NCBI GenBank assembly: GCA_963754945.1
Contig: CAVWIG010000018.1
Location: 132,031 to 196,030 of the forward strand
Source: Methanotrichaceae archaeon
GTDB taxonomy: Archaea; Halobacteriota; Methanosarcinia; Methanotrichales; Methanotrichaceae
Direction: 5' to 3'
DNA length: 64,000 bases
Numbering within the stretch: the stretch's first letter is position 1; each line of letters starts with the position of its first letter. The position numbers and the translations under genes were made by a program. Below, piece by piece: positions 45,776-63,735 of the stretch. The notes under the pieces are model-generated. The model saw only the letters and a program-made list of their open reading frames with translations, did no database searches and was not told the DNA's origin.

Positions 45776-46022
45776 ACGAATTCTGCAAGGCCAACCTTTC
45801 GCGGTTGATGCGGCCCGAGCTCCCAGGTAGAACGAGACCATTGTGCCGACGTATTGCGTCTACTGACCCAAAGGGTCCTTTGATCGCCGACGGATCCGCG
45901 TTATTATAGGCGATCGCCACATAACCGAAAGAGACAAACCGACAATCGTCAAAAATAGAGCGCGAGAATGACCTGCGCTTCAATGTCTCTGAGTTGGATC
46001 AGGAGGTACGGGATCGGCTATT

Positions 46023-47399: not shown

Positions 47400-47508
47400 T
47401 CACAATCATCTCCTTAGCCTATCTATAACTAATGTCTAAAAATATAAATATTGTGTATACTTATTCAAAGGCTCCTAAACTCCCAGTGGGTGCTTGGAAG
47501 GACGAAAA

Positions 47509-47586
47509 ATCTGGCACTAGATGCTTTTTATTCTCGAACCTTATGTATACTTCAATGCTCCTCTCTCGGTACGGTGCACATAAGGC
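47509..47586. repeat. repeated 80-bp site with internal inverted repeat (copy B)
   Basis: ATCTGGCACTAGATGCTTTTT...CCTTATGTATAC-N23-GTGCACATAAGG. Confidence 0.7.
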
Positions 47587-47979
47587 TATTTTAGCTATCG
47601 ACTTTTGATAGAAGAAGACCGCGAAGACGCACGGCTGAGCCCAGAGGTGGCTCCATTACTCGGTTAAGGCTGCCCAGTTGAATGATCTGGCCGCGGAGTT
47701 TCTGGCATCAATCGATTTCAGCTGCACGGACCCAGAAGCAACGATCTTATTGAAAGAGAACTGGATGACTAAGAGGGAAGAAACGCTTCTCAGAGACGCT
47801 AAGAGCAATGAGATCCGAGTCTTCACTTGAAAGCAATCTAGTGCAATCATGCCATGGTCGCCAAAGATTATATGGCTAGAAAGTGAACTCTGCAAATTTA
47901 ATGCTGGTTGTAATCATTCAAAGCATCGATAGGTTTTCTATCTCATAAGATCTATATACCAATAAAAAACATTGCGCAT

Positions 47980-48903
47980 ATGAAATTGTTTGAAGTGTGT
48001 GCAATTTTATTTCTTCTAGGAGGAGTTATTTTTTTCGGCATCTGTGCCGGGGCAGCTCCAGGAAATAGCAGCTCAATTGCAAGTGTATCGGCGGCATCTA
48101 CAGGCATGGCTCATGCGGACCTCGTCGCATACGTAGATAATGCAGTGGCCTATGCCAAAACTAATGGAAAGGAGATAGCCATTAAGGAGTTTAATAATAA
48201 CAAGTCGGCTGAGTTCATTAAAGGTGATCGCTATGTCTTTGCTTATGATTTCAATGGTGTCACATTGGCTAACCCCCATCGACCGGATTTCGTCGGCAAT
48301 AACAAGCTGGATCTGAAAGATACCAATGAAGTTGGATTCATCAAGAACTTAGTTTCTGTAGCAAAGAGAGGTAATGGGTATGCCTATTATGTCTGGGCCA
48401 ATCCAGACAACAATAATAAGCAGGAGCTAAAGTTGACTTACGTCGAGAAGGTAGATGATACCTGGTGGTTGGCCTCTGGGACCTATCTGTCCAACATGTC
48501 TGCGAACTTCAGCCAGGAGTCTAGGAATAATCTCGTCAATTTCGTCGATACTGCTGTCAAATACGCCAAAGATAATGGGAAAGATAAGGCTTTGAAGGCA
48601 TTCAATGACAAGAATGGTACGTTCTTCAAGAAAGGCCTTTATGTGTTCGCCTATGACTTCGCTGGTAACACCCTGGCACTTCCTATTCAGCCTGACCTAA
48701 TAGGCAAGAACAGGATTGATAGTAAAGATCCCAATGGCGTTGACATCAATCGAGATCTGATAGCTCTGGCCCAAAACGGAGGCGGATTCGAGTACTATAT
48801 CTATCCAGATCCAGCAAGAAACATGACGCTGGGACTCAAGCTTAGCTATGTCACGAAGGTGGATGATACCTGGTGGTTGGGAGCAGGAATATACTCCAGT
48901 TAA
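47980..48903 (+). CDS. secreted tandem Cache-domain protein
   Basis: Signal peptide; two repeats of YVFAYDF.G.TLA.P..PD..G.N..D.KD.N...KL.YV.KVDDTWWL..G.Y. Confidence 0.9.
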   Translation: MKLFEVCAILFLLGGVIFFGICAGAAPGNSSSIASVSAASTGMAHADLVAYVDNAVAYAKTNGKEIAIKEFNNNKSAEFIKGDRYVFAYDFNGVTLANPHRPDFVGNNKLDLKDTNEVGFIKNLVSVAKRGNGYAYYVWANPDNNNKQELKLTYVEKVDDTWWLASGTYLSNMSANFSQESRNNLVNFVDTAVKYAKDNGKDKALKAFNDKNGTFFKKGLYVFAYDFAGNTLALPIQPDLIGKNRIDSKDPNGVDINRDLIALAQNGGGFEYYIYPDPARNMTLGLKLSYVTKVDDTWWLGAGIYSS

Positions 48904-49479: not shown

Positions 49480-49878
49480 ATGGTTCATGACACCCCGGCC
49501 CGCAAGAGGGCGCGCGAACTGAAGGAAGAAGCCCTCAGCCTGATCAAGGAGGCCCGAACACTGGAGGGCATCGAGGGGTTGAAGGCAGAGTCCACGGCTC
49601 GGCAGGATAGGGCGAAGGAGTTGAATGAAGAGGCCAAAGGGCTCCAGAATAGGGCTCGGCTGGAGGACTTGAGCGTTCGGCAAGTGGATTACTGGAAGGA
49701 CACACAAAAGAAGGGCAGGCAGAACTATCCCAGGTGGGTCTGTTCCTGGCAAGAGGGCGACAAGGTCATCACCAAGTATCTCGGAAGTTCCAGGAAGCTA
49801 TCCAGAGAGGGGGCCCTGCAGAAGGCCAGGAAGATGAAGGCTGAGGCGTTATGGTTGGGTACTCGACCGGTTGATTGA
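49480..49878 (+). CDS. hypothetical protein: coiled coil plus small beta-sheet DNA-binding-like domain
   Basis: GGAG RBS; YPRWVCSWQEGDKVITKYLG motif. Confidence 0.65.
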   Translation: MVHDTPARKRARELKEEALSLIKEARTLEGIEGLKAESTARQDRAKELNEEAKGLQNRARLEDLSVRQVDYWKDTQKKGRQNYPRWVCSWQEGDKVITKYLGSSRKLSREGALQKARKMKAEALWLGTRPVD

Positions 49879-49962
49879 GTATACAATGCGCTGGGGGCCT
49901 GTGCCCAATAATCTCCCGAAAGGTTTTCAGAGTAGTATGACCAAGCAAATCGGAGGATACTT

Positions 49963-50388
49963 ATGGTAAACAAAGACGAGTTGGTCATTAGGTGGTTAGA
50001 AGAGCCCGTCGACGTACCTTGTGCTCTATGCAAAAGCAAGAAATCAAAGAAATTCAAAAAAGGGCCTGTTGTGTCTTTGGTTGGCGGAGAATTAGTTTGT
50101 CCAAAGTGTGCAACGAAATATAATAAAAATCTCTGGGACGTTTATTCAAGCTATGGCAGGCATCTTGAGGATCTCGACCTCAAGCTTCCCTCTGATGATT
50201 TGCGATTAGATAAACTGGACTTTAAAGAGCCAATAGTACCAGAATTCGACGATAAAGAGTTTCTAAAAACAGACAAGTACGATGATTTTCAAGTGCCAGA
50301 ATATGAGCCACTCTTCAAGGAAGAGGAGAGATGCGCTAGATGCGTCCACGCATTTTCGCCAAGAACTGGCCCTAAAACTACTAAGTGA
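49963..50388 (+). CDS. hypothetical Zn-finger protein
   Basis: GGAGG RBS; CALC, CPKC, CARC. Confidence 0.6.
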   Translation: MVNKDELVIRWLEEPVDVPCALCKSKKSKKFKKGPVVSLVGGELVCPKCATKYNKNLWDVYSSYGRHLEDLDLKLPSDDLRLDKLDFKEPIVPEFDDKEFLKTDKYDDFQVPEYEPLFKEEERCARCVHAFSPRTGPKTTK

Positions 50389-50593: not shown

Positions 50594-51973
50594 CTACTCG
50601 GATTGGACCTTTGATTTGGTAAGCTTTGCCTTAATTTGATGGAGAATTTCAGTTATAGGTCTCAGATCTGATTTGAAGCCCGACATTTTAAAGGTAAAAC
50701 ATGGTCGAAGATATGCGAAAGGGTCCTCCATTGCTTTAGCAGAAAATAATTGATCGCCACGAAACCCAGGTTCCGGTGGCTCATAAATATGCGGTATGGT
50801 GCCAGGTACTAGCATCCCCTGTGATGCTTCTGGTGATAGAACTTGGTTATTGGTTTCCAGATCGATTATTTCATATTGCATGTTGTTGATGCATAGATGG
50901 AAATTTCGATTCGTTCCTTTCGTTCCTTTGTAATACAATTTTGCCACGTAGGTAAAAATATTATCAAAATGGGTGCTAGCAACATTCCAATAATATATGT
51001 ATTGCCTTACCTGAGCTTCCATTTTATTACTGTCAATAGTTCGATTTTTGAAAATCTCAGCCAAAATGTCTGGAAAGTTCATGTAAATGGCATAGGCTCG
51101 ATTGACCAAAAAATAAGGATTATCATTATCTATCAGGTAGCTGTCTTCAAATATCCTCTCAAATGGCCGTAAGAAGAGCAATCTCACCGGGCGATTGATT
51201 GGAGACGATGTGAATGGACTCAAATACATATCCAAATCTAAAAAATCATGATAGCATTCAGGAGAAGCGGTCTTATGAGCAATGCGCATTTTTTCAAAAA
51301 GTGTTCTTCTATAAAGTCTAACTGCTTCCAATGGGGTAAAGCTCATTAGCCTTTCGATGGGCTTAATAGATTGAGGCGACCATTCTTTCCCTGCCCCTTC
51401 CACCTGGTCCTGTAGACTTTTGTTTTCCTCACCGCTCGATTTTCGCTCGGGAATAATTTTAATACTAATTTTATTATAGTCGTCGATAGTGACCGGAAGA
51501 GTCAAGAGCGACTTGGAGGCGATTTCTCTGAATTTGGTACTTTCCTTCATTTCGGGCTCAATCATATCGTAGACCGCAATAAAGCCATATTTTTGGATTA
51601 TACTACTAGTAAAACCTGACCCCAGAAATTTTCCCGCGTTATCACTTAAGTAAAGCTTGAACATCCGTTCAAATGCAGGTTTAGTAGCCACGAGCTGGTA
51701 ATAATGCCGTGAGTCATAATTCATCTTCTTTGCTTTATCATTCGTTTTTCCTTTGAGCGGAGATCCAACTGGTTTAGTTCTGTGTAGGATCTTCCTATTT
51801 TTAAGATAACTTAGCGCTTCCCGAATTTTCGACTCGCCTGTGAATTCTCTTAGAGATTTCAAGTCATCATACGTATAGGGTCTTGCAGAATTTTCTATCA
51901 TCATGTCCAGAATTCTTTTTGCTGTAATGGGAATATTTTCTTTTTCTAACATATATATTAATTCCTGAAACAC
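50594..51973 (-). CDS. putative regulator with N-terminal winged helix
   Basis: AKRILDMM...ESKIREALSYLKNRKIL; divergent from the replication operon. Confidence 0.6.
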   Translation of the reverse strand: MFQELIYMLEKENIPITAKRILDMMIENSARPYTYDDLKSLREFTGESKIREALSYLKNRKILHRTKPVGSPLKGKTNDKAKKMNYDSRHYYQLVATKPAFERMFKLYLSDNAGKFLGSGFTSSIIQKYGFIAVYDMIEPEMKESTKFREIASKSLLTLPVTIDDYNKISIKIIPERKSSGEENKSLQDQVEGAGKEWSPQSIKPIERLMSFTPLEAVRLYRRTLFEKMRIAHKTASPECYHDFLDLDMYLSPFTSSPINRPVRLLFLRPFERIFEDSYLIDNDNPYFLVNRAYAIYMNFPDILAEIFKNRTIDSNKMEAQVRQYIYYWNVASTHFDNIFTYVAKLYYKGTKGTNRNFHLCINNMQYEIIDLETNNQVLSPEASQGMLVPGTIPHIYEPPEPGFRGDQLFSAKAMEDPFAYLRPCFTFKMSGFKSDLRPITEILHQIKAKLTKSKVQSE

Positions 51974-52023
51974 TAATTGGCTTTTAGGTAGAGTTATAGA
52001 TTCCTCGAACTTATAGTTTGCCC

Positions 52024-52185
52024 ATGAGTACGATGTGTGTCGAGGTGAACGACGCTCTCCTGAAAAAATTCAGGAGTTTCGCCGTTGAAAAGCATGGGCG
52101 CATCTACGGCGTCCTCGGGCCGGAAGTCGAAGCTGCACTAGCTGAGCATTTGAAAATGAACAAACCGCGGCCCAGAGTGGCGTAG
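52024..52185 (+). CDS. small RHH/CopG-like protein (53 aa, not in ORF track)
   Basis: MSTMCVEVNDALLKKFRSFAVEKHGRIYGVLGPEVEAALAEHL. Confidence 0.7.
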   Translation: MSTMCVEVNDALLKKFRSFAVEKHGRIYGVLGPEVEAALAEHLKMNKPRPRVA

Positions 52186-52416
52186 ATGAAAGAAAATGTA
52201 AACTCCGAGAGCGCGGGCAACGCTCTCAGGCGGACAATTCTCCAGATCACGTATCAGGAGACTACTACCCATGTTATACGATGGTTTTCCTCTTAAACAT
52301 TCCGTAAGATCACATCACGATCCGGAAGCCAGTTGGTGGCCGTGCTCGTGTGGACGGTGCCAGACCAGAGATCGACGCCGGTGGGACCGAAGAATCGCAC
52401 GCGGAGAGGTGCAAAG

Positions 52417-52647
52417 GTGACAACTTTTCCTGTTCGCCTCGAGATATGGACAGATGAGATTGGCCTCCTTCATGAACTCCAGGACCGTGACGGCTGTCTT
52501 GTGGCCAAGATCGGCCCCGATGTGGTAGCTCTGCCTTATGAATTGCATGAAGTTCTGAAGAGTCTGGTAGGCAGGAAGATCAGCGTGTTTAGGAGCGATC
52601 ACGACTATCGAGTGCGTTGCCGCGACGAAGGAGGGGTTCATGCCTGA
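52417..52647 (+). CDS. small conserved element protein, paralogue of 34085-34348
   Basis: GTG start after GAGGTG; aligns along its length with 34085-34348. Confidence 0.8.
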   Translation: MTTFPVRLEIWTDEIGLLHELQDRDGCLVAKIGPDVVALPYELHEVLKSLVGRKISVFRSDHDYRVRCRDEGGVHA

Positions 52648-53215
52648 TCACACTAACCCGCATCAGGAAGGCGGGGAGAAATCCCTTCCGGGAGACAACA
52701 GGCCAGAGGCGTCGACCACTGAAGAAAAGAAGGCAGCTTTCAAGAAACCAGAAACCGGGAACGATATCATAGATTGTGGCCCATGTAGGCTACCAATGCC
52801 AGACCCAGTTCTCCTGCCACCTCGAAATCAAGCTCCACCGAAGGGATTTCACATAGTTAAAATCCTCAATAAACCTAGGCCCGGAGATTCTGTTCACCGA
52901 ATTGATTATCGGAGCCTATTCAATCTTTTGTATTTCAAGATTTTTATAGAAACTAAAGATGGACTTGAGTGGAAACCTGTTAAGTGTGATCCTCGCGATC
53001 ATCGATTAGCACCACCTACAGATTATGTTTGTCCATACTGCAACGAACTGGCACATACGGCTATCTCAGGGGTGCTCAGGTGCATCCACTGCGGCCGGGC
53101 TGTACGCCCCACACCACTTCGAGCCTATGGTAAGCATGCAGTGGAGTTCATCGAAAACAAGAAACGTGAACGCAAATTTGACGAATTTCTTAATGACTGC
53201 AAGAGGCGATCCTGA
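52640..53215 (+). CDS. hypothetical Zn-ribbon protein
   Basis: CPYC...CIHCG; overlaps the upstream gene. Confidence 0.65.
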   Translation: MPDHTNPHQEGGEKSLPGDNRPEASTTEEKKAAFKKPETGNDIIDCGPCRLPMPDPVLLPPRNQAPPKGFHIVKILNKPRPGDSVHRIDYRSLFNLLYFKIFIETKDGLEWKPVKCDPRDHRLAPPTDYVCPYCNELAHTAISGVLRCIHCGRAVRPTPLRAYGKHAVEFIENKKRERKFDEFLNDCKRRS

Positions 53216-53358
53216 TGGAAGTCGATCCATGGGATTGTCGAAATTGCCCGGTAGCTAACGATCTCCTGCGATGGATTGAGTTGTCCGCAAAGAATGCAGG
53301 CTTAGAATTTCGAAATAAGCAGCTTCGGGAAAAATTGTCTGTCCTAGCGAGGCGCTAG
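53215..53358 (+). CDS. small hypothetical protein (47 aa)
   Basis: TGATG coupling; MEVDPWDCRNCPVAND...LREKLSVLARR; ends 2 nt before the primase start. Confidence 0.45.
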   Translation: MEVDPWDCRNCPVANDLLRWIELSAKNAGLEFRNKQLREKLSVLARR

Positions 53359-53360
53359 GC

Positions 53361-56300
53361 ATGGCCGCTAACTTCGATGCTATCCCCGAGGAGCTTAAAG
53401 CCCTAAAGAATTGGTCGCTGTGGAAGAAGGGTGTACGCGACGGCAAGCCCGCGAAGGTTCCTATTCAATTGAATGGTAGAGGCGCAAAATCAAATGATTC
53501 TTCAACGTGGATAACTTTTGCTGCAGCCCTAAACGCTTATCAGAACCTAGACGGCTTTGATGGCATCTGTTGTATGATGCCTACAACACCGGATAGCCTC
53601 ATTTTCATTGACCTTGACTATTGCATTGACGATAAAGGGGTTATCGAGCCGTGGGCGGCGGATGTAGTTAAAAGGTTCAACTCTTATACTGAAAAGTCAC
53701 AGTCCGGGCATGGTCTCCACATCTTAATCAAAGGAAAGAAGCCTTTCAAGCGATGCCGTAAACATGGCAGCCCCTTTGAGATCTATGATTCCCTAAGACC
53801 CATGTATCTTACTGGTGCTGGTGACTTTCCCGATGTCCAGGCTAAAATAAATCCTCGTCAGGATGAGCTAGACAGTCTTTTCTTTGATATCTTTGGGAAT
53901 AATGAGCAGGAAAAGCCGGGGCCCGCAGATAAGCCCTCAGAAGGCCGCTATCTAGAAGATGAGGTTTTGCTCAAACGGGCTATGCTCGCAAAGAACGGAG
54001 CAGCCTTTAAGGACCTTTGGGACGGCTCCACGCTCGGGTACAGCGGCGACGATAGCGCCGCTGACATGGCCCTATGTAATCATCTGGCATTTTGGACAGG
54101 TAAGAGCGCCCTGCAGATGGACAGGCTATTTAGAAAGTCCAGGTTAATGCGTCCTAAGTGGGACGAAAATCGAGGAAGTCAGACTTACGGTGAAAAGACC
54201 ATCAATGAAGCTATTGTCGGCTGTACTCAAGTATATGAACCACCAACAGAACCCATACACGAAGAGCCGATTAAGGGAACCTGTGACATAGAAAGACTGA
54301 TAGCGGTTTATAAGAAATGGCTGTACGTCAAAGAGGATTACAGCATTACAGGGCCAATGGTCGCGGCTGTGGCTAACTTTTGCCCTGGCGATCCTGATAT
54401 TATAGGGATCATAGCCCCCTCTGGATCTACCAAGACCGAAGGCATCAGGGCTCTAGGAGAGGAAGAGAACAAGTTTGTTTATCCTCTATCATCATTGACT
54501 GAGCATACCTTCATCTCGGGGTTTGTGGACAAGAACGGCAAGCCCGGCCGAGATCTAGTACCTTTGCTGAAGCATCGACTTTTGGTTATAAAGGATCTGA
54601 CCACTATCCTATCTAAGAAAGAGGATGTAAGAGGCCAAATATTCGCAGACTTCCGAGAGCTGACAGACGGATACATTGAAAAGGAATTCGGCAACGGTAC
54701 AAAAAAATTGTATAAGGATATTCATAGCTCTATATTATTCGCTTGCACCAATGCAATAGAACGATACTATTCAATGTATTCTAATTTGGGCCAACGCATG
54801 ATTTTTATGAGGCCCGAGGGCGATAAGATCAAGGCCCGAGAGCAGAGCGTCAAAAATCGGAGCAGCCTTAAAGAAATGCGTGCAGATATCCACACGGCAA
54901 CCGTGCAGTTTTTAGAGCTGAATGTGGAGAAGACCAAAGCCGGATTGCCTACAACTTCGGACGCAATAGCTGAAGAGATGGGACCATTGTTTGACTTTCT
55001 GGCGGTTGCTAGAACTTCGATTCACCACGATTTTAAAGGTGACATAGACGAAATACCAGAACCCGAGTACCCAACCAGGATAGCCAACACATTAACGCGG
55101 CTGCTAGAAGTCCATGCCCTGATTCATGGAAGGGATGAAGTAGACCCAGAAGATGTAGCCTTTGGGATTAGGATCATCAGGGACAACGTACCAACGACAC
55201 GGTATAAACTGCTAGAGATATTGAGCAAAACACCAACAATCTATCTCACTACACCCAATATTGCCACCACAGCCGAATTGCCAACAGGCACAGCGAAGAG
55301 AGTCCTCGATGAAATGTTCGCCCTTCATCTGTTATAGGACTTACGCACTTGGCAGAATCTTCTTATATTGCATATGCTATATTAATACCAACAAATAAAT
55401 GGGATAGGGCTGAACTTGAATCCTTCCAAGTGCGATGATCTTGATTATATTCACTTTCTGATAGCATCAGTAGATGTTTTTACCTGTACTGAGGCTGCAA
55501 GGTGCCAGCCAGTAGGAGAAAATAGTCCATCGCATGATGCATTTACCCGTCTTCTACAAAGACAGCCTCCAGATACGGATACGTTGTGGAATGAGGTAAA
55601 GGATATTGTTCAGCCTCAAAATGGTTTCTTGGTTATTGACGATACGACGTTGGACAAGCCATATGCTAAAAATATGAGCCTAGTCTATCATCAATGGAGT
55701 GGAAAACAGCATCGATTGGTGAATGGAATCAATATTTGTACGTTGCTGTGGACAGATGGAAACGCTATAATTCCCGTTGATTTCCGAATCTACGATATAG
55801 ATGTCGACGGCAAGACAAAAAATGATCATTTTCGAGATATGCTTGCCAAAGCAAAAGAACGGCGTTTTCAGCCCTGTATTGTTCTCTTCGATAGCTGGTA
55901 TGCCAGTGTAGATAATCTCAAAACCATACGAAAGTCTGGATGGCACTGGCTGACCCGATTGAAGAAAAATAGGCTAGTGAATCCGAATAACACCAAAAAT
56001 ATGCAAATTCAGGAGATAGAGATACCGCTGCAAGGCAGGGAAGTGCATTTAAAAGCTTATGGTTTTATAAAAGTATTCCGGATAGTCTCTAATGACGGTG
56101 ACATAGGATACTGGGCAACTGACGTGCTGGAGATAGACGAAGCTAAACGCGAAAAATTTGGTGGATATTCCTGGAAGATTGAGGAATATCACAGAGGCAT
56201 AAAGCAATTCTGTGGAGTCGAAAGCTGTCAAGCAAGAAAAAGTCAGTCCCAGAGAGCACACATAATGTTCTCCCTGAGAGCGTTTCTCAGATTAGAAGTA

Positions 56301-56536
56301 GAAAGGCTTAGAATAGGAATAAGTTGGTTCGAATCTAAGCGAAGAATTATTCGCGAGTCAATTCGCGAATATATAAAATATCCTTATTATTCATTGTCGA
56401 AAGATTCAACTGCGTAAGTCCTATGTTAGATAAAATCAGCTACCAATCGAAGACGGAAGCTGACACAGACCGGCGCTCTGACTCTTATCAGATCAGAAAG
56501 GAAGTTTTAGCCCCGGTCCTAAAACTGAAAGTATAG
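53361..56536 (+). pseudogene. AEP-type primase (NrS-1/P4-like N-terminus) + AAA+ helicase-like + wHTH, interrupted near the 3' end by IS701
   Basis: IPEELKALKNW, FIDLD, YTEKSQSGHGLHI, DDSAADMALCNHLAFWTG, APSGSTKT, LVIKD; frame resumes at 56424 as LDKISYQ...LKV*. Confidence 0.85.
55335..56423 (+). mobile_element. IS701-family element (copy 2), transposase 55416-56417
   Basis: TIR TAGGACTTACGCA; TSD TGTTA; protein identical to copy 1. Confidence 0.92.
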
Positions 56537-56666
56537 GGTTGCCATCGTCTAAGAGGGTATATCCCAAAGTCTCCTCTTAATTAAATATAAATTTATCGAT
56601 TACAAAGTCAAGATAAAGTACCTTTGTGGTAATATATCCTCTCCCCTAATGGCAACCCTATACTTT
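56528..56666. repeat. 18-bp perfect inverted repeat around an AT-rich core (candidate origin)
   Basis: AAAGTATAGGGTTGCCAT ... ATGGCAACCCTATACTTT; core TTAATTAAATATAAATTTAT. Confidence 0.75.
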
Positions 56667-56737
56667 TGGATTTTCATTTCAGACTATATAAGAATGTGGA
56701 GATGTGCGCAAGAATTGCGTTTAAATGAGGTTAAAGA

Positions 56738-56920
56738 ATGAGCAAAGGTAAAACGCATTGTAGAGGCTCCCGATGTAATATCGTCAGATCCAATATCAAC
56801 AACGCCAGACGCAAGGCTAGGAAGAAGGCGAAGATCTACGATTTGCACGATTATGATAAGCCGACTGGTAGTGAGCCTCTGGAGTCGAACCCGCGGAGGT
56901 CAAAACATGAAGAGCCTTAA
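56738..56920 (+). CDS. small basic hypothetical protein
   Basis: GAGG RBS; R/K-rich 60 aa; first gene of the coupled operon. Confidence 0.5.
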   Translation: MSKGKTHCRGSRCNIVRSNINNARRKARKKAKIYDLHDYDKPTGSEPLESNPRRSKHEEP

Positions 56921-57263
56921 GGACTTTGAGAGGCGGCTTGTCACTTTGTCGATCGGCTCACATGAGACCATCAGCGATGATAGCAAGGCATTTTTGGACA
57001 GTTTGACTTGGGCCGAGGAAGACCAAATGACCGAAATCTTCATCAAACACGCGCTTGCGGGCGATCAGCCTTATGAAAACCTGACCTCGGAAGAGGCTGA
57101 TTTTTTGATAACCTTGCTCGAGCGTCCAGTTAAGCCAGTGCCACCAAATGTTCGAATAAAAGAGGCAATCGATCGAGAAAGAGCGATAGACGAATGTTTT
57201 GCAAATATGCCTCGGGACAGCGGGGGTAACCGGATCGCATGCGGAGGCGGTCAGGATGTCTGA
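56907..57263 (+). CDS. small protein with degenerate N-terminal coiled-coil tag (FERRLVTLS)
   Basis: GGAGGT RBS, ATG at 56907. Confidence 0.65.
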   Translation: MKSLKDFERRLVTLSIGSHETISDDSKAFLDSLTWAEEDQMTEIFIKHALAGDQPYENLTSEEADFLITLLERPVKPVPPNVRIKEAIDRERAIDECFANMPRDSGGNRIACGGGQDV

Positions 57264-57381
57264 AGTACAAATCGCAAGGCGAAGAGTTCGAACCCTACAG
57301 AAGAAACCCTACTCGAAGGAAAACTACGACGGCTCCGAGGGGGCCGGGGATCAACCTGAATTCAAAAAGCGCTGGCGGTGA
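57256..57381 (+). CDS. microprotein with degenerate tag (RRVRTLQ)
   Basis: ATG overlapping the upstream stop; GGAGG upstream. Confidence 0.4.
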   Translation: MSEVQIARRRVRTLQKKPYSKENYDGSEGAGDQPEFKKRWR

Positions 57382-57384
57382 ACC

Positions 57385-57621
57385 ATGCCCGAAAAGAAGC
57401 GATATCTGCGACTTAAATTGAATAATCCAGAGGATGCACAAGAGTACATCCGTCGGCTGCTGAGGAATCTGAAAGAACGCGGTCCGGATGCTGAAATTGA
57501 ATATCTGGGTAGGATTAGCCAAATATTATCAGTCTGGTTGAAATCTTATGAATTGAATAAATTAGAGGATATCGAGGCCAGGCTTGCGGCCTTGGAGAAA
57601 GAGAAGGAGACCAAGAAATGA
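57385..57621 (+). CDS. small helical protein with C-terminal IEARLAALE coiled coil
   Basis: 78 aa, amphipathic helices; ATGA overlap with the next gene. Confidence 0.75.
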   Translation: MPEKKRYLRLKLNNPEDAQEYIRRLLRNLKERGPDAEIEYLGRISQILSVWLKSYELNKLEDIEARLAALEKEKETKK

Positions 57622-57887
57622 GAACCCAAAACTTGCAGAAACGTGTTGAGGCACTTGAGGCCACGCAAAGCCGCGTTCCCGTCGATCAATGGCCCCCGAG
57701 GGATTGCAATCCGAACAGGCGTCTTGCGAGATATGCCTCCTACTTCGATGACACAAAGCCATGGAAATGCACCGGGACACCGGAAAGAAGGGCTGAAAGA
57801 GATGCTAGATTCGCCCGAGACGCAAGGCTGGCCCGCTACCAAGATTATTTTGAAGACCAAGAGACCAGCGTCGCTGTCTCGGAGTGA
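57618..57887 (+). CDS. tagged microprotein (MRTQNLQKRVEALE...)
   Basis: AGGAG RBS, ATGA coupling, shared N-terminal motif. Confidence 0.75.
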   Translation: MRTQNLQKRVEALEATQSRVPVDQWPPRDCNPNRRLARYASYFDDTKPWKCTGTPERRAERDARFARDARLARYQDYFEDQETSVAVSE

Positions 57888-57889
57888 CA

Positions 57890-58072
57890 ATGAAAGCAGA
57901 TAACCTTTCCCGGCGACTCTCGGCACTGGAAGACGACCCAGAGGAGGATTTGGTCGCGTTTAGCTACCAGTGGCTAAACGAGGATGGCACACCCGCCGGA
58001 CCATTGATCGAGCGCCGGATCCCTCGTAGTCGTTATGAGATGTTCAATTTTGAATGGATTGATGAGAAATGA
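57890..58072 (+). CDS. tagged microprotein (MKADNLSRRLSALE...)
   Basis: GGAG RBS; alternative GTG start at 57884; shared motif. Confidence 0.75.
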   Translation: MKADNLSRRLSALEDDPEEDLVAFSYQWLNEDGTPAGPLIERRIPRSRYEMFNFEWIDEK

Positions 58073-58236
58073 AAACAGATTCCCTGAACAGCCGCCTGGA
58101 CGTCCTGGAAAAGCAAGCTAACCCCGTAAATATCAGGCTTATTTGGTACGACGATCCCGATTATGGAAAACAACCTGAGCCGGGCAATACCCGTATCAAC
58201 CTGCATTTCTTAGACGAACTGGAAGGAGTTTTATGA
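58069..58236 (+). CDS. tagged microprotein (MKTDSLNSRLDVLE..., 55 aa, not in ORF track)
   Basis: ATGA overlaps at both ends; shared motif. Confidence 0.75.
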   Translation: MKTDSLNSRLDVLEKQANPVNIRLIWYDDPDYGKQPEPGNTRINLHFLDELEGVL

Positions 58237-58475
58237 GCGTAAATGCACTCAACCGCCGCGTAGCAGCGCTAGAAAATAGTGCCCCTATTATTGATGATCT
58301 TGCTGATTACGCCCTCTGGCGTGCCCATGGCTGCGATCCGAACGTCCGATGGGACCCGGCATTTAAAGAGATGCTAGAGAAGGCGTTTGCGGAAATGAAG
58401 GAAAGACGTGAGCATCTGCTTAAGAAGACGGACAATGCCCGGGTCGATGTCAATGTCAATGGACGCGGTTCCTGA
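58233..58475 (+). CDS. tagged microprotein (MSVNALNRRVAALE...)
   Basis: AGGAG RBS, ATGA coupling, shared motif. Confidence 0.75.
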   Translation: MSVNALNRRVAALENSAPIIDDLADYALWRAHGCDPNVRWDPAFKEMLEKAFAEMKERREHLLKKTDNARVDVNVNGRGS

Positions 58476-59145
58476 TTGTATATTTCCAGCATCAAACATC
58501 GAAGGAGTTGCCGATCTCCTCGTAGACAGGCAAGGGGATTTCTTTGATTATCCTCTGGCCTGGGGATCTGTTCGCCGAACTGGAGATTTTCGGGGCAGAA
58601 CTATCCACTTCTACACGGACGATTATCGCTTTGCAGCGGTCTGGAATAAGCCCGATCGAGTGTGGCAAAGTGGTGCTCCTAGCTTTGTTGAGGTCAATTT
58701 CAGCACAAGTAACGCTCAACCTCGTTGGAGAGCTTTGGAGCAGATAGGCAAAAAGCGGTTCTTGTCAAGGTATTGGCAAGAGCGTGGAATGCTATGCTGG
58801 GTCGATCTCAACGTCGCTCCGAAATGGTGGGACATCAATCTTCTGGGCGTTCCTTTGGGCTGGAAAGCCTATGCGACCAGGATCGAGAAGAGCAGTTCGC
58901 TTCAAAGCATAATGGATCAGGCTTCTTTAGCAGAATCGCAAGCAGGAACAGATGAAATCAAGTTCGTAATCTATGGTCACCGGCAGGAGATGGAAGATCT
59001 CTGTCGGAGACGCGGCTGGATCTACGTCGACGAGCAAGCAACGATCTGGAATAAACGAGAATCAAACAAGGCAAGGAAAGTGTCGTTGCAATTAGAAGTT
59101 GAGCATTTTGAACAAACAAAACAACTGACTTTGGAGATGATATAA
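58408..59145 (+). CDS. DUF4417-like phage-associated protein (start uncertain)
   Basis: IHFYTDDYRFAAVWNKP, NFS, RYWQERG motifs. Confidence 0.65.
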   Translation: MSICLRRRTMPGSMSMSMDAVPDCIFPASNIEGVADLLVDRQGDFFDYPLAWGSVRRTGDFRGRTIHFYTDDYRFAAVWNKPDRVWQSGAPSFVEVNFSTSNAQPRWRALEQIGKKRFLSRYWQERGMLCWVDLNVAPKWWDINLLGVPLGWKAYATRIEKSSSLQSIMDQASLAESQAGTDEIKFVIYGHRQEMEDLCRRRGWIYVDEQATIWNKRESNKARKVSLQLEVEHFEQTKQLTLEMI

Positions 59146-59340
59146 ATGGGCGGTGACAAGGGCGGGACCCGCCCGGGTCGTAAGAACGAAATTGGAACAT
59201 CTGGATTTCAGGGCGGACCCGACGTACACGGTGGGACCTTAGGTCGAGATCAGACACCGAAACAGCCTAAAGTTCTTCTTAAAAACGGCAAAGTGCAACC
59301 TGGCACAAAAGCGTTTAGGTTGCAACAAACGAAAACGTAG
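59146..59340 (+). CDS. small Gly/Lys-rich protein
   Basis: Begins immediately after the upstream stop, GGAG RBS, MGG start. Confidence 0.5.
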   Translation: MGGDKGGTRPGRKNEIGTSGFQGGPDVHGGTLGRDQTPKQPKVLLKNGKVQPGTKAFRLQQTKT

Positions 59341-59422
59341 CATTGTTTGCTCTAGTTAGTTGGTATTTTACGGGTTAGTGATTCATGCTAACCCCCATTT
59401 TCTATATTATATATCTTGGGGT

Positions 59423-59563
59423 ATGAAGATGACAAATTTGTATGATAAGCGCATACAGGGCCTGAAGGCCCTAAAGAACCAATTGCAACTAACCGCAAAA
59501 CTGATTGACAGGCTTATCGACCTGGAGACGCGCATCCAGGAGCTCGAAAAAACAAAGAAGTGA
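59423..59563 (+). CDS. coiled-coil microprotein with two RhxxhE motifs, coupled to the tape-measure-like gene
   Basis: DRLIDLETRIQELEKTKK; GTGA overlap at 59560. Confidence 0.6.
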   Translation: MKMTNLYDKRIQGLKALKNQLQLTAKLIDRLIDLETRIQELEKTKK

Positions 59564-62361
59564 TTTTTGTGAGTGCTATCAGGGATTTCGTCATCCGTAC
59601 GCTTCTTCAAGGAAATGATGAAGCGAAAGATGGGATTCAAGAAACTTTGGATCTAGCTCAGCGACTTACAGAAAATGCATACGATGTTGTGGTTGATGCC
59701 GACACGAGTGGCGTCGATGCCCTGGTCGAATCTGTTGATCAACTAGGAGAATCCGAACAGGAAGCCAGCTCTCTCACGGAGTACCTGACAAGTGCACTGG
59801 AAAGCGTCCAATCGGTGGCAGAGGGTGTTTCAGAAAAAGTAGGAGACATGGTCGAGTCGATATCAGCCGCTAAGCTTGCTGCTGGAGCTGCTGTGGCCCT
59901 GGGAGCAGACCAGGTCTTCAAGATGCAGGAGACTAAAGATGCTCTCACTGAACATTTCAGCACGACCCTTACGGAGGCTCAATCTGATGGCGTGAACAAG
60001 TGGCTCGGGAATCGACCGCCAGAAGTATCGTTCACTCAGCGAGCCAAGGCTTACTTGGATCTGACGTTCCACAAGATAGGATCAGATCAGGCCATGGAAG
60101 CCACTAAAGCCGTTGAAGAGTTCGTGTTTCCAAGAACTGCTGAGTTAGGAGAACAGGGAGTAGACACATCAAGCATCATCGAGACCCTTTCCGGGTGGAC
60201 TCAACAGCAAGGCGGTCGCCAGGCCATGTCCAAGAACAACCTGGCTTCGATGGGCAATGCCGGTCGAGTTCTAGCTAGGATGGGGATCGATTCGCCAACG
60301 GATCAAGACATGGCAGCTTCTCGGGCTCATCTAGAAACCACAGGAGAACTTACAGGAAAGACGAAACAACAGGCAGACGCAGCAATCTTGCTCGGAGCAG
60401 TGCTACATCAGTTACAAAGTCAGTACAAAGCAGTCGATTATTCACAGTTAGACGCGTCTCAGCAGATGGAGATATTCAATGCTGACATGAGCGACATGAC
60501 TCAACAGATCGAGACTGGTGCTCTGCCATACCTGTTGATGCTAGTAGACATGATACACAATCTAGTTGACGTTGTAGAGTCCGTCCCTGGCCTTCCTCAA
60601 GTCTTAGGCATGATAACTGTCTTCACAATCTTAATGACCGTTCTTGGGCCTCTGATGGGTGTCTTGGGGCCAGTAATCGGATTGTTCACGGGTGCGGCTG
60701 AAGCCGTTGGGATGGTCAGTATAGCCGTTGCAGAAGGCACAACTGTAATTGATGCTCTGGTTGGCGTACTAATCGGTGTAGTTGGCTGGCCTCTCCTGAT
60801 CGTAGCTGGTCTAGTCGCCCTTGGAGTAGGCCTGTATGAGGTTGAACAGAAAACCCATGCCTTCTCAAACGCCTGGGCCGCCTTCAGCCAATCGAGCATT
60901 GGCAAAGATCTCATCAACGACGTGCAGATGCTTGTAGGGCTGCTAAGCGGCGGAGCAGCCGATCTGGGCGGTCATTTCCTCCAAGGAGCTGTCCAGGGAG
61001 TAACCGTTTTCGAAGAGGTCATTGGTGGTGCCTTCGAGAAGGCCGACGGACTCTACAAGTTCCTGAAGGCCCATGATGCGCTCGACGTGGTGCTGGGATT
61101 TGCCATAGGAGGGCCTATAGGAGCGCTGATAACTGGCATTCCTGCGATCGAGGCTCACCTGGACCCGATTGACTCTTTCACCAAGCTGATCTACTACCTG
61201 ATCCGGGAACTTCTGACAGCAGATACTGACTTTGTGACCTGGATCAAAGGGGTCTGGAGTGACGTTGTGAACGCGGTTCTGGGCATTGCGAAACCTATAA
61301 CTGACGAGCTTGAACGGCTAGGGAATTGGTTCCAGGGAAAAGGATATCAGACAAACGCGGAACTTGCCAAATCGCAGTCTGCTGGAGGCACAACGCCCGC
61401 GTTGAACCTGGATACAACGCAGATGCCGCCTGGATATAAAACAGCGCCTGGCGAAGGTGATCAGCTTATACTCGTTGGGCCAGATGGCAAATCAATCGGA
61501 GCAGCTACATATAATCATCTGCCAGACAATCAAAACCCTGACTTGATGAAACAAGCATGGGATGATTATTATAAGAACCACCCAGATGCAAAAAAACCAG
61601 ACACTCCAACGCCATCAACACCTGCCCCAAGAAATGTTCTCAGTGATGCGCGCGCTGGTTTAAGCCAGGGGGTTAACAACGAACTCCAAAATCAGGAACA
61701 ACAATTCAATGCGTGGGACAAAAACCAAGTCGGCCCAGCGTCGGCATCGGTCGATCAGGGTCCGGTTGCACTATTTAAATATGGATACTCGGCTGCAATG
61801 GGGCTAATCGACAATCTCAAAGGAACCCCAACACCAACACCAACACCAACAACCGATACAACACCATCTTCTCCAACTCCCTCATCGCCAACTCCAATAA
61901 CACAGTACAAGAGCAAGATCGATGGACACATCATAGATAAAAATACATACGACAACTATCTTGTGCCTGACCAGCAGCTCAATTATGTTCCTGCTCAAAA
62001 AGGCGGCCTAATCACAAGTTCCGGAGGGCTGATTGGTCACGAAGGAGAGCCTATCATCCCCGCCGAGATTGCAAGTTCGTCCAGGCTCCAGGAAATCTTA
62101 GAGTCCTTGATCGATTCTCCTGTGGCCGTTATGCCGCCAAAAGAAAGCTACTCGGGTGGAACTGCTCAGCCTGTAGTCTTCAATCTCGGTGGGATAAGCG
62201 TACCAGTGACCATCAACGGCAGCACTGACAAGCTAGATGAAGACTCTATTATCCAAAAGATTAAGGATGTACTGGAAACCAGGTTCAACGATTTCGAGAT
62301 GTCGCGTCTCATCGAGGAAGTCGTAAAAAGAGGAAGCGCACACTATGGGGGCGGTAGTTGA
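59560..62361 (+). CDS. phage tail tape-measure-like protein
   Basis: 933 aa; Ala/Gly-rich amphipathic helices, long central hydrophobic stretch, C-terminal AQKGGLITSSGGLIGHEGEPIIP and VVFNLGGISVPVTING. Confidence 0.7.
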   Translation: MIFVSAIRDFVIRTLLQGNDEAKDGIQETLDLAQRLTENAYDVVVDADTSGVDALVESVDQLGESEQEASSLTEYLTSALESVQSVAEGVSEKVGDMVESISAAKLAAGAAVALGADQVFKMQETKDALTEHFSTTLTEAQSDGVNKWLGNRPPEVSFTQRAKAYLDLTFHKIGSDQAMEATKAVEEFVFPRTAELGEQGVDTSSIIETLSGWTQQQGGRQAMSKNNLASMGNAGRVLARMGIDSPTDQDMAASRAHLETTGELTGKTKQQADAAILLGAVLHQLQSQYKAVDYSQLDASQQMEIFNADMSDMTQQIETGALPYLLMLVDMIHNLVDVVESVPGLPQVLGMITVFTILMTVLGPLMGVLGPVIGLFTGAAEAVGMVSIAVAEGTTVIDALVGVLIGVVGWPLLIVAGLVALGVGLYEVEQKTHAFSNAWAAFSQSSIGKDLINDVQMLVGLLSGGAADLGGHFLQGAVQGVTVFEEVIGGAFEKADGLYKFLKAHDALDVVLGFAIGGPIGALITGIPAIEAHLDPIDSFTKLIYYLIRELLTADTDFVTWIKGVWSDVVNAVLGIAKPITDELERLGNWFQGKGYQTNAELAKSQSAGGTTPALNLDTTQMPPGYKTAPGEGDQLILVGPDGKSIGAATYNHLPDNQNPDLMKQAWDDYYKNHPDAKKPDTPTPSTPAPRNVLSDARAGLSQGVNNELQNQEQQFNAWDKNQVGPASASVDQGPVALFKYGYSAAMGLIDNLKGTPTPTPTPTTDTTPSSPTPSSPTPITQYKSKIDGHIIDKNTYDNYLVPDQQLNYVPAQKGGLITSSGGLIGHEGEPIIPAEIASSSRLQEILESLIDSPVAVMPPKESYSGGTAQPVVFNLGGISVPVTINGSTDKLDEDSIIQKIKDVLETRFNDFEMSRLIEEVVKRGSAHYGGGS

Positions 62362-62399
62362 AAACAATAGGAACAGAGGTATGAGGCACTACAATGCTT

Positions 62400-62424
62400 G
62401 AGGGCAAAACGCCCTCCTTTTTTT
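62400..62424 (+). terminator. hairpin plus T-tract terminator
   Basis: GAGGGC-AAAAC-GCCCTC-C-TTTTTTT, 39 nt after the tape-measure stop. Confidence 0.65.
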
Positions 62425-63084
62425 ATCGACTTTATATTTTATCTCTGTATATTAATAATTTCTAAAAAGCCCTAGAATAGGCTATCTTCCGGCATGATGG
62501 ACCATAAGACAAGGTGCTCAAGACCGAGAGGCGTGCGGCCCTGAGACATTCGAAGCAAAGGGCTATAATTTTGAAAGACAGATCTACTTTGTTTTCATTT
62601 TTTGAGCTGATCAGCAGTTTGCTATTTGATCTACCGCCTCCATTCCATATGTCGAGGGACGGGGATGGCCGAACCGTGCCCTGGAAATAGGCGAAGGGAG
62701 ACTAGTGTCGCGTCAATATTGAAGTGTCACGAAGTAATTCGCCACAGAGATGCAAGAGTCAAACTATCTTGGCTTTATCCGACACTAGATAGCTGACGCG
62801 ACACTAGGAAGAACTGATGGCGTGATGGCAGATAGATTGGTGTGTCCCTTCGCTTGAAACCGCCCAATTGTTCTCAGACGTATTTAGGATGAGTGGCTTA
62901 GGAGATAATATGACTGGTACTTACAAAATAGATCGACGGATATCTGAAGACGAAGGGATTAGGATGCCAGAGGGACCAGATGGTTAAGTCCTTATTGGAG
63001 GTTGGTATCCCTTCGCTTGAGCTATTCTAATTATACCTCAAAGTTGGTATCCATTTCTCGGGGCGGAATGCATCAACAACCAGG

Positions 63085-63354
63085 TTAAGCCGGTCCTGCG
63101 GGACTCTTTTCGTCGGCTGGTACGGCCACGAGAGTCTCTATATCCATCCGGTCCGCCCTTTTTAAGGCCATATTCATCGCTACTTTTTCATTGGGGGCTT
63201 CAAATAGCACGACGGTATCGTACCTTCCGAGCGTCCAGTAGATGCCCAGGTATCGAACCTGTCCTTTCGTGTCGTCTTCTATATCCTTCAGGTTCTCAGC
63301 AATAACTTCCTTGCTCAGCTTTTTCTTGAACTTAGCCAATGCAATGAAAAGCAT
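63085..63354 (-). CDS. GYD-domain protein
   Basis: YWTLGRYDTVVLFEAP...ETLVA. Confidence 0.85.
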   Translation of the reverse strand: MLFIALAKFKKKLSKEVIAENLKDIEDDTKGQVRYLGIYWTLGRYDTVVLFEAPNEKVAMNMALKRADRMDIETLVAVPADEKSPAGPA

Positions 63355-63419
63355 TACGCATTCACCTCATCCCTTTTTCAGGGCATTCTAACATACGAAA
63401 AGGAGCTATTTAAAAATAC

Positions 63420-63600
63420 CTTATCGTATCCTCTTGATATAGGCAAACAATGGCGGTAAGATGGAGCGAAGCAGATTGAGGGCACGCACGGGGATGAGAT
63501 ATGCATTACTGAACCCTATTCTTGAGGAGCTGGCCAGGGAAGGCAGAATAAGGATTACTGCAGACAAGGACGGGGATTAGTATCCCTAATAGGTCAGTAG
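63420..63600 (+). pseudogene. degenerate winged-helix domain remnant
   Basis: YRILLI*ANNGGKMERSRLRARTGMRYALLNPILEELAREGRIRI with an internal stop. Confidence 0.4.
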
Positions 63601-63735
63601 GGCGCAGGATACTCCTTTCGTATCTTTCTAGTTTTTTTTGTACAAAGATTTTTCATAATGCAAGACTGTTGTTTTCGGTGGAGGGATGAAAATGCCGTAT
63701 GGATTATTCAATAAAAAATCTTCGCACACCTCTTG

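Follow-up and report, generated by a model that had tools for sequence, protein, structure and literature searches.

A capsid-less integrative element with a myovirus-type tape measure gene in a Methanotrichaceae archaeon, a candidate virus satellite

Satellites of tailed viruses are well known in bacteria, and the phage-inducible chromosomal islands (PICIs) among them are laid out in the order integrase gene (int), divergent regulators, pri-rep, replication origin (ori) and accessory late genes. The closest working analogue of the locus described here is the PICI-like element (PLE) of Vibrio cholerae, a small integrated island with its own integrase and replication but no capsid genes, whose helper is the myovirus ICP1. 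According to a recent study, every PLE has genes for a tape measure protein (TMP), a chaperone and a baseplate hub, with 19-41% identity to the ICP1 counterparts, and the PLE TMP replaces the phage TMP in chimeric, shortened tails, its deletion cutting transduction by 96-99.9% (10.1101/2025.01.29.635557). EPIP satellites of Mycolicibacterium aichiense likewise carry a TMP and have altered tails, the TMP being proposed to mediate tail hijacking, and the same source, as far as its accessible part goes, says that satellites lack TMPs apart from PLE11 (PMC12822802). From archaea, pSSVx, pSSVi and the proposed SRCEs of spindle-shaped viruses have been described, together with NMV2S, a 3.8-kb circle that is a putative satellite of an Asgard siphovirus (10.1101/2025.02.15.638363; 10.64898/2026.08.12.739948); most of these archaeal plasmid-derived satellites are parasites of spindle-shaped viruses and encode an ATPase or capsid protein of that virus lineage. 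Here we describe a small integrated element with its own TMP gene in a 64,000-nucleotide stretch of DNA from a Methanotrichaceae archaeon (assembly GCA_963754945.1, contig CAVWIG010000018.1), referred to below as the window.

The window spans positions 132031-196030 of contig C18 of a 2.97-Mb genome, G000, that is 87.7% complete (G, C and L denote genomes, contigs and loci throughout). Its region from ~40.99 to 62.5 kb is best explained as an integrated copy, damaged by insertion sequences (IS), of a family of small integrative replicons of Methanotrichaceae-like archaea. We estimate a probability of about 0.8 that the locus belongs to a distinct family of capsid-less integrative elements with a captured myovirus TMP. 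That the element also acts as a virus satellite, PLE-like and with its own TMP, is a further claim, for and against which we see the odds as balanced. The backbone, composed of a p179-int pair, a divergent winged helix-turn-helix (wHTH) gene opposite an operon of a ribbon-helix-helix (RHH) gene and p104, a primase-helicase and an origin, behaves like an integrative plasmid. To judge from sequence comparison, the best explanation of the remainder is that the window lineage added to this backbone a late operon ending in a full-length TMP from archaeal head-tailed myoviruses.

A first-pass annotation of the window had listed ten features, namely a divergent wHTH gene, an RHH microprotein, a conserved small protein, a zinc-ribbon protein, a primase-helicase, a palindromic candidate origin, a microprotein operon, a DUF4417-like gene, a tape-measure-like gene and a terminator, and all ten are present in that order on open reading frame (ORF), Pfam/PHROG, repeat and hairpin evidence. 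It had also recognised no capsid, portal, terminase ATPase or tail tube. In agreement with this, none of the 18 ORFs of the element matched a capsid, portal, terminase or tube family at E ≤ 0.01 in Pfam and PHROGs, and the upstream ORFs gave none either. Profile libraries perform poorly on this virus group, missing most head genes of the real myoviruses of the family (in L022, two of the 19 ORFs scanned had a PHROG match), so that the statement that there is no capsid gene rests mainly on size and ORF lengths. ORFs of 45-245 aa stand before the TMP gene and a terminator and a GYD-domain gene after it, with no tube, sheath or baseplate gene on either side.

The TMP homologue (59560..62361, + strand) has 933 aa, matches PHROG 1272 with E 4.8e-10 and is built of an N-terminal coiled-coil region, central hydrophobic segments, PT-rich linkers and a C-terminal G-H-E-G-E-P-I-I-P-A motif. 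It aligns over its full length with nine relatives, two of the ten proteins coming from proviruses that encode sheath and baseplate, and the alignment is marked by an N-terminal M-x-x-R-D, the hydrophobic core and a C-terminal G-G-x-I-x-x-S-G-x-L-I-G-H-E-G-E-x-I-x-P-A. In nine loci of small elements the TMPs measure 791-933 aa and keep both the C-terminal motif and the core. Myovirus homologues of the window TMP sit between tube/chaperone genes and baseplate genes. In a maximum-likelihood tree of 18 TMPs, those of small elements and of myoviruses are intermixed: G009 and G016 fall together with two myovirus TMPs (support 100), G100 and G004 with G044a (100), and the small element of G080 pairs with the myovirus of G038 (97 SH-aLRT support). 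Strongly supported branches force at least four changes of the label 'small', and the clustering of that label is no greater than with shuffled labels. The TMPs of small elements are shorter than those of myoviruses (872 ± 53 aa, n=9, vs 979 ± 69 aa, n=10; Mann-Whitney p 0.005), which is only a hint, the compared proteins being related and not independent. The TMP alignment had 0 matches in a profile search of the PDB, and a word-index protein search with the TMP returned only the window TMP itself. Scanning IMG/VR with the single TMP found nothing; with the alignment it found five loci on contigs of 25-127 kb, and the four examined are full myoviruses.

A TMP profile search of all 105 genomes of the host family gave matches in 17. 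These include a class of small elements, made up of the window, contig C8 of the same genome, G016, G009, G082, G031, G017, G044b and G080, with G100 doubtful; G004 is intermediate, having three baseplate-type genes beside its TMP, one of them weakly GpU-like and below the curated cut-off. Syntenic homologues in Methanotrichaceae genomes, which the first-pass annotation had proposed to look for, thus exist in at least eight other loci from five genera of the host family. Their common layout is p179-int, a divergent regulator, a p104-like gene, a large replicase, a short variable module and the TMP last, and it recurs in G016, G009, G082, G080 and G044b and partially in G031, G017 and C8. The regulators are non-homologous between elements (PadR-like in G082, for example) and at least four types of replicase occur. 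Loci with both ends in view measure 12.1-14.5 kb from p179 to the end of the TMP, too little to accommodate a head-tail module, and no sheath, tube, baseplate, capsid or portal gene was recognised near the TMP in at least nine small-element loci (outside G004).

Several relatives carry a split large terminase (TerL) and no capsid gene (L029, L010, L083 and L085; PHROG 7579, E 2e-42 to 1.6e-49). In the elements of G009, G044b and G080, and in a truncated one with which C8 begins, this region encodes a ~200-aa protein, a TerL ATPase of ~252 aa and a ~230-aa PHROG 27743 protein, the last with a weak TerL-nuclease match in one case, and it lies between replicase and TMP. G044b has in addition a 192-aa prohead-protease-like protein. 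No capsid or portal gene is recognisable in any of these four elements.

The TMP loci had been found by a TMP search, and this bias was controlled by way of the p459-like regulator and of the integrase. A p459-like regulator occurs in 7/105 genomes of the family, and three of the loci have the backbone with no TMP: L109 consists of p179-int, a p459-like gene, an RHH gene and a gene for a 976-aa protein, and L105 and L107 are similar. An integrase alignment scan of species-representative genomes gave 314 relatives, from which the best 80 were kept with 10 kb on each side; they come mostly from Methanotrichaceae, Methanothrix or Methanosaeta metagenome-assembled genomes, and some are probably among the loci already analysed. 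In these 80 loci we found p179 in 78, a p104-like gene in 42 (using a profile built from p104 relatives), a reference-type replicase in 28 and the split TerL ATPase in 12; sheath, tube or baseplate J within 10 kb was found in 0. The TMP was seen in three, a floor value, as a 10-kb flank misses most expected TMP positions. In L152, L136 and L121, a TerL is not followed by a TMP. Because the backbone is found also without a TMP and with TerL alone, it is the backbone that makes up an integrative replicon family of its own, with TMP and TerL as accessory modules on it; the TMP does not define the family. The window has what does define the p179-int replicon family, that is p179 upstream of an Xer-like integrase, a p104-like gene and a large replicase.

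C8 carries the late operon a second time, from p136 to TMP, with 82-87% DNA identity. All 10 ORFs compared are intact in both copies, and dN/dS between them is 0.13-0.68 for nine of the ten (p55b was not computable), with values of 0.23 for the TMP, 0.14 for p245, which is 97% identical in C8, 0.31 for p64 and 0.19 for p67. Judged by these ratios, the late operon is under purifying selection. On C8 the operon comes after the C-terminal portion of a replicase of another type, which an IS interrupts where the contig ends, and this joining of the same late operon to a different replicase is modular exchange. Past its TMP, C8 continues with a TPR gene, a block of small conserved genes and then host-like genes such as GMP synthase, with no head or tail module.

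Two further observations were made in and around the same genome. A recurrent block of small genes, F23/F33, F24 (with a p104-like C-terminal domain), F25 and F7, is found at C8 10317-13173 (L010) and L006 8691-10979; it has an integrase in one copy and none in the other, adjoins the TMP end of several elements and may be a tandemly integrated mini-element. On C21 at ~19-33 kb (L034 3000-17100) lies another small element beside a host HhH-GPD gene, with a primase-like gene (274 aa), an HNH-AP2 gene, a helicase (570 aa), a terminase split into 247 + 295 aa, an IS, a 407-aa ORF and an integrase.

The late operon of the window opens with a run of microprotein genes (56907..58475, + strand): p136 (118 aa from 56907, +), p78 (57385-57621, +), p89, p62, p55b and p80. 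p78 has homologues in L008, L025 and L031 and no leader. The other five share an N-terminal leader, M-x(2-7)-L-x2-R-[LIV]-x2-L-E; p136 has S for the final E and fits only the looser L-x2-R-[LIV]-x2-L-[ES] form. The strict LE form is almost missing from the rest of the genome: a scan of every frame of 45 aa or more that begins with ATG, across all 2.97 Mb, gave 11 matches, of which the two late operons account for eight and a site next to a p78-like gene on C22 for one. Proteins of 67-245 aa in the replicase-to-TMP modules of G082, G031 (two) and G017 begin with the leader too. With those of the window (56907-58475) included, the proteins that carry it are otherwise different and measure 52-245 aa (further sites L026 6752-6955, L030 3591-4696, L031 7673-8005 and L008 12905-13219). 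Past the leader, a 67-aa protein of L026 (G082) and a 123-aa protein of L030 (G031) resemble p80 as judged by eye, with no score attached. A reading of the leader as a mimic of the N-terminus of a myovirus scaffold was abandoned, since it matched a single myovirus protein (L080, 144 aa) whose homologues do not have it.

The microprotein genes are followed by p245 (58408..59145, +), a stand-alone DUF4417 protein (PF14386 E 1.1e-14; PHROG 940 E 6e-25) that has no ParB domain of the kind found in its phage relatives. Four phage contigs have a DUF4417 homologue just ahead of a ~190-aa gene and a large ORF, the latter with a TerL ATPase match in L091. A streptococcal phage is described, in the accessible text, with a DUF4417 gene two genes upstream of its small terminase gene (PMC8066415), and the available part of a ParB-fold survey treats DUF4417 as a phage-enriched fusion partner of unknown role (10.1101/2025.10.10.680097). 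The AlphaFold2 (AF2) model of p245 was poor (pLDDT 52.6) and a DUF4417 alignment matched the PDB only through the ParB domain, which p245 lacks. Between p245 and the TMP, p64 and p67 (59146..59563, +) lie immediately upstream of the TMP gene and overlap its start; p64 is basic and probably disordered, and p67 is a coiled coil, likely of 45 aa from 59426. A tail-assembly chaperone was sought with hhalign by comparing myovirus chaperone-position proteins with the proteins upstream of small-element TMPs, those of elements other than the window's p64/p67, and probabilities were ≤ 0.2%. The operon ends with a terminator-like hairpin (62400..62424, +; 6-bp GC-rich stem + T7). A PADLOC search of 21 element and flanking proteins gave no match.

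At the other end of the element, p179 (40991..41470, +) is the conserved partner gene preceding the integrase, directly upstream of which its homologues lie also in L023, L027 and L029. The tyrosine integrase (42778..43644, +) is Xer-like, with 288 aa left, a Phage_integrase match (E 2e-25) and a SAM-like N-terminal domain, and it is 57-63% identical to the integrases of five small-element relatives. The first-pass annotation had placed it at 41458-43644; the integrase is indeed there, and the rest of that span is an IS transposase (IS-B, 41488-42753). The divergent regulator gene p459 (50594..51973, -) encodes an N-terminal winged helix and a large helical domain. Its AF2 model, made with a 29-sequence alignment, has a pLDDT of 84.4 and shows the N-terminal winged helix, which alone matches the PDB (MarR/PadR/GntR-type, probability 0.9-1.0 over ~90-150 residues); there is no whole-protein PDB match at E ≤ 0.001, no Pfam match of its own and no usable match in the ESM Atlas. 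Five weak wHTH-family matches were obtained among 29 members of the family scanned. There are 125 relatives at E ≤ 1e-3, and a p459-like gene adjoins int in L105, L107 and L109. On the model, p459 is a predicted, divergently transcribed wHTH regulator.

Opposite p459, the rightward early operon begins with p55 (52018..52185, +), an RHH-like microprotein whose sequence pattern fits RHH, though it has no Pfam match, and whose homologue in L109 (E 2e-15) is also divergent from a p459-like gene. Next come p104 (52333..52647, +), a conserved small backbone protein with homologues in L023, L026 and L010, and p191 with p47 (52640..53358, +), where p191 (52640-53215) is a zinc-ribbon protein (CxxC...CxxC) as read from the sequence; the sole library match for this pair is a weak one to PHROG 8032.

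The replicase (53361..55337, +) is an NrS-1-like primase-polymerase joined to a helicase (PHROG 1829 E 2.6e-79; NrS-1 HBD domain PF22763 E 1.2e-31), with its last 33 codons cut off by IS-C. Beyond that IS is the candidate origin (56468..56685), an AT-rich sequence with an inverted repeat whose 42-nt arms (56521-56562 and 56632-56673) are 76% complementary. In L089, which has an IS-free arrangement, the replicase is 82% identical to the helicase half of the window protein and the DNA right after its gene is 75% identical to window 56468-56685. Because L089 keeps similar DNA right after a related replicase, the comparison supports a reading of the palindrome as part of a putative replicase-linked origin. 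In another relative, the G009 element, five iteron-like repeats (CAGGGACGGTA core) lie at L029 6962-7242 within the 3' part of the 849-aa replicase gene and are likely its origin.

L089 together with L095 is an IMG/VR record of 15,533 bp that CheckV rates 100% complete. It encodes a 154-aa protein, TerL (397 aa), a portal (465 aa), a scaffold-like protein (157 aa) and a capsid protein (292 aa); TerL and portal follow the origin, the scaffold-like and capsid genes are at the other end, and no tail genes were seen. It looks like a capsid-forming small element, similar to capsid-forming PICIs (cf-PICIs), and not like a syntenic relative of the window's late operon. The possibility that homologous loci carry head-tail modules, raised in the first-pass annotation as the sign of a deletion remnant, is therefore touched by L089 with its TerL, portal, scaffold and capsid genes after the origin; the syntenic TMP-bearing loci have no such modules.

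How does this element compare with the systems outlined above? Its likeness to PLEs, one of gene content and not of a comparison of PLE protein sequences, includes a TMP of its own that is distantly related to a helper-type myovirus TMP. It differs in its archaeal host, in a tyrosine integrase with p179 (PLEs have a serine integrase), in its primase-polymerase/helicase replicase and in having no recognised chaperone or hub beside the TMP, and it is known here from genes alone. With EPIPs it shares small size and a TMP in the absence of most tail genes; EPIPs, however, are known as isolated particles and, in the available text (PMC12822802), have a serine integrase, a small terminase (TerS), head-tail adaptors, a scaffold and a capsid protein, of which the window element has none. 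With PICIs and P4-like satellites the likeness is in gene order, a size of 10-15 kb and the lack of structural genes. Here the differences are that Pfam and PHROG scans found no TerS, Ppi, Cpm, Sid, Psu or Delta homologues, that the regulators are non-homologous, that a TMP is present and that relatives of the window element carry a split TerL instead of packaging-redirection genes. The layout which the first-pass annotation called PICI-like thus holds for int, the divergent regulators, the primase-replicase and the adjacent ori; it does not extend to terS, ppi or cpm, and the PLE is the closer analogue. pSSVx, pSSVi, SRCEs and NMV2S also combine a plasmid-type replication module with an incomplete virion module, and none of them is described in the accessible parts of their sources with a TMP or a backbone of the window type. 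No TMP-bearing archaeal element turned up in the partly accessible literature that we searched, in which methanogen virus compendia were covered incompletely.

For the element as a satellite, we infer excision, helper dependence, packaging and chimeric tails. When a host myovirus replicates, the element would excise and copy itself; its TMP would be built into the tails of the helper, and it would leave in helper-made particles, as PLEs of V. cholerae do with their own TMP. Manipulation of the helper would be a candidate role for the tandem leader-motif microproteins and for the DUF4417 protein. Phage internal proteins have capsid-targeting leaders, and by that analogy one may go further and imagine the first satellites of archaeal head-tailed viruses, in which a plasmid backbone repeatedly steals a myovirus TMP (in relatives, a split terminase) for chimeric virions and the leader microproteins are new tagged effectors loaded into, or aimed at, helper virion assembly. 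We regard this extended version as speculative and, taken as a whole, unlikely.

A number of results count against the satellite interpretation or against the capture of a myovirus TMP on which it builds. The window has no terminase or TerS-like gene, and no chaperone or baseplate-hub homologue was recognised beside its TMP. A helper is not apparent in G000: there was no Phage_capsid, Phage_portal or sheath match, tblastn of the genome with structural genes of the family myoviruses gave no match besides the TMP, and the one weak TerL match leads to the small element on C21. A small element and a myovirus provirus were seen together in only one genome (G044). The two window-type TMPs stand on their own long branch with no close myovirus relative in the sample, and the same backbone occurs with no TMP (L105, L107, L109) and with TerL but no TMP. 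The p179, int and replicase genes of the window copy are all truncated by IS. Attachment (att) sites were not apparent, there being no convincing direct repeats between the flanks of five elements and no shared core. Finally, no excised, circular or IS-free joint, and so none of the circular forms or junction reads that the first-pass annotation had in view, was found in Logan contigs of four public runs, three DNA runs matching the element and one more of the same study; the contigs are short with a depth of ~1-5, the best run contained 0.31 of the element words, and no RNA run was listed.

The first rival to be considered is that the element is an integrative plasmid with a defence role that is never packaged, its TMP, like the split terminase of relatives, acting as a decoy that poisons myovirus assembly or packaging and so protects host and element. 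The existence of the backbone without any virion gene in L105, L107 and L109 would make virion-type genes accessory cargo; TMPs have repeatedly been exchanged with myoviruses, the window has no packaging gene, and interference with tail assembly is encoded by satellites and islands (PMC11364771, in its available text; Rta of PLE11). A decoy would not need a full-length architecture, yet the length, motif and hydrophobic core described above are kept in nine loci. The terminase genes of the relatives fit packaging better, and PADLOC recognised nothing among the 21 proteins. We consider the defence role unlikely, if the most durable of the alternatives.

The second rival sees in the locus the remains of a head-tailed provirus after deletions and IS activity, and for this the true myovirus proviruses of the host family are the proper comparison. 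They were found in G044a, G021 (two), G039 (two), G038, G014 and G056, to which four IMG/VR contigs can be added, and they carry sheath, tube, chaperone-position genes, TMP, baseplate J and Neck1. They share with the window element the TMP family, the p179-integrase module, which flanks the myovirus proviruses L077, L078, L079 (integrase 45-49% identity) and L038, and the neighbourhood of a host HhH-GPD gene, a recurrent neighbour of both elements and proviruses. In contrast to the window element, they have sheath, tube, baseplate, neck and head genes and a tail operon that runs towards int, whereas in small elements the TMP gene runs away from int. A simple deletion does not turn the provirus layout into that of the small elements.

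Two features of these proviruses deserve mention in their own right. In the G038 provirus (L080 6485-9151) a reverse transcriptase gene (PHROG 1423 E 1.8e-126) lies beside a tail protein gene and looks like a diversity-generating retroelement in a Methanotrichaceae myovirus. The G044 provirus (L021 2769-10512) encodes a 1319-aa UDG-PHP-PolIII-alpha fusion, a thymidylate kinase, an ATP-dependent ligase and a thymidylate-synthase-like protein.

Decay of a provirus would account for the three IS in this copy and the IS-rich window around it, and is in keeping with L089, where a related replicase and ori accompany TerL, portal, scaffold and capsid genes, with the prohead-protease-like fragment of G044b and with the three baseplate-type genes beside the TMP in G004. 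Against it, in addition to the opposite orientation of the TMP relative to int, the compact layout with an intact terminal TMP recurs in several genera, dN/dS is below 1 in all nine computable gene pairs, and the myoviruses examined have other replication genes, such as the PolIII-alpha fusion in L021. Sheath, tube and baseplate genes are also absent from all of the 80 closest-integrase loci. We therefore judge a decayed provirus to be improbable. In preferring a satellite to a decayed provirus, the first-pass annotation was right in so far as this is a capsid-less conserved family and not a simple deletion remnant; the satellite behaviour itself does not follow, and the compact operon and clean terminator that it gave as its reasons are weak grounds.

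Just as improbable, in our view, is that the TMP homologue was recruited for a non-viral role, for example as a membrane channel or scaffold for cell-to-cell DNA transfer or vesicle export. Several hydrophobic segments, long coiled-coil regions and the lack of any other virion gene in the window would suit such a role. Pfam and PHROG scans, however, found no ATPase, coupling protein or other transfer gene in the element, and small-element TMPs have remained near those of viruses and are exchanged with them, which speaks for a role still played in a viral tail. Very improbable, lastly, is a complete tiny virus of unknown morphology with its structural proteins among the unannotated small ORFs: profile searches miss most head genes of real family myoviruses as well (the two of 19 in L022), which makes their absence here weak evidence, but ~2.7 kb separate ori and TMP gene, the late ORFs besides DUF4417 and TMP are of 45-118 aa, charged and not hydrophobic, and the fold of p459 is that of a regulator and not of a capsid protein.

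We return to the integrated replicon itself and its limits. By homology the element starts at p179, at ~40.99 kb, and so appears larger than the 50594..62424 of the first-pass annotation. This start follows from two pairs of genes lying between int and p459. The int-proximal pair p348 and p104b (43773..45133, +), possibly cargo, includes p104b, which has a weak, toxin-like match (PHROG 353, E 4.7e-5) and a homologue that adjoins int in L029 (the G009 element). The small backbone genes p132 and p141 (49480..50388, +) have homologues inside the G080 element between int and regulator (L086 2184-3211), and p132 has one in L031 too. Between the two pairs are a papain-family protease (46023-47399, -) and a Cache-domain protein (47980-48903, +), both assigned by Pfam (45880..48903). 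These look host-like, and we are unsure whether they belong to the element. Protease homologues occur in 56/105 genomes of the family with flanks that are not conserved, and a paralogue on contig C28 (177814-179187) is 89% identical with one in-frame TGA. An empty site sought by way of the protease gene was not found, conservation being limited to the gene itself.

Three IS cut the element. IS-A, which ends at 40990, replaces the first ~20 codons of p179. IS-B (41488..42753, -), between p179 and int, has a DDE_Tnp_1 transposase (41467-42690, Pfam) and a 99.8% identical copy on contig C30; when it is excised in silico the integrase frame extends upstream, and the integrase has therefore lost ~15 N-terminal codons. 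IS-C (55335..56423, +; 1089 bp) encodes a 333-aa DDE transposase and has terminal inverted repeats and a 5-bp target duplication, TGTTA. It is inserted 33 codons ahead of the native stop of the primase-helicase, whose frame resumes at 56424-56527, and its transposase has 15 near-full-length copies in the genome, the window's own included. Because p179, int and replicase are truncated by IS, the window copy is probably crippled, or immobilised.

To the right, a GYD-domain gene region (63058..63714, -; ORF 63085-63354) is 96.7% identical to DNA just past the C8 TMP gene and represents cargo or else a shared flank; nothing in the C8 copy corresponds to window 62541-63057. Another IS begins at 63730 and contains the window end (64000), which is also the end of the contig, so that the terminator at 62400-62424 need not be the end of the element. 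The contigs of L023, L026, L030 and the window all break within ~1.5 kb after the TMP stop, which hints at a repeat or a strain-variable junction there. To the left, window 36900-40990 contains a second, truncated integrase gene (187 aa, minus strand), 51% identical to the 288-aa integrase and abutting nested IS, a DUF772/DDE transposase interrupted by an IS21 istA-istB pair; this suggests an older element at the same spot. A tRNA gene as integration target was dropped from consideration, the window having none. Elsewhere the window is rich in IS and related genes (15703-16704, 21884-23077, 25307-26500, 26882-28198 and 28962-30014), among them a further IS-C copy, two Mutator-family transposases with the same Pfam score, an IS66-family transposase and a RhuM-family gene.

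In digesters, peat and sediments, Methanothrix-type methanogens are key producers of methane from acetate. If the satellite interpretation is true, tail piracy with a satellite-encoded TMP, experimentally shown so far only for Vibrio PLEs, would extend to Archaea. The p179-int pair, the p104-like gene, the leader-motif microproteins and the terminal TMP would provide markers from this family for virome mining. The family also offers a testable model of the interplay between virus, satellite and host, one that could affect the population dynamics of these methanogens.

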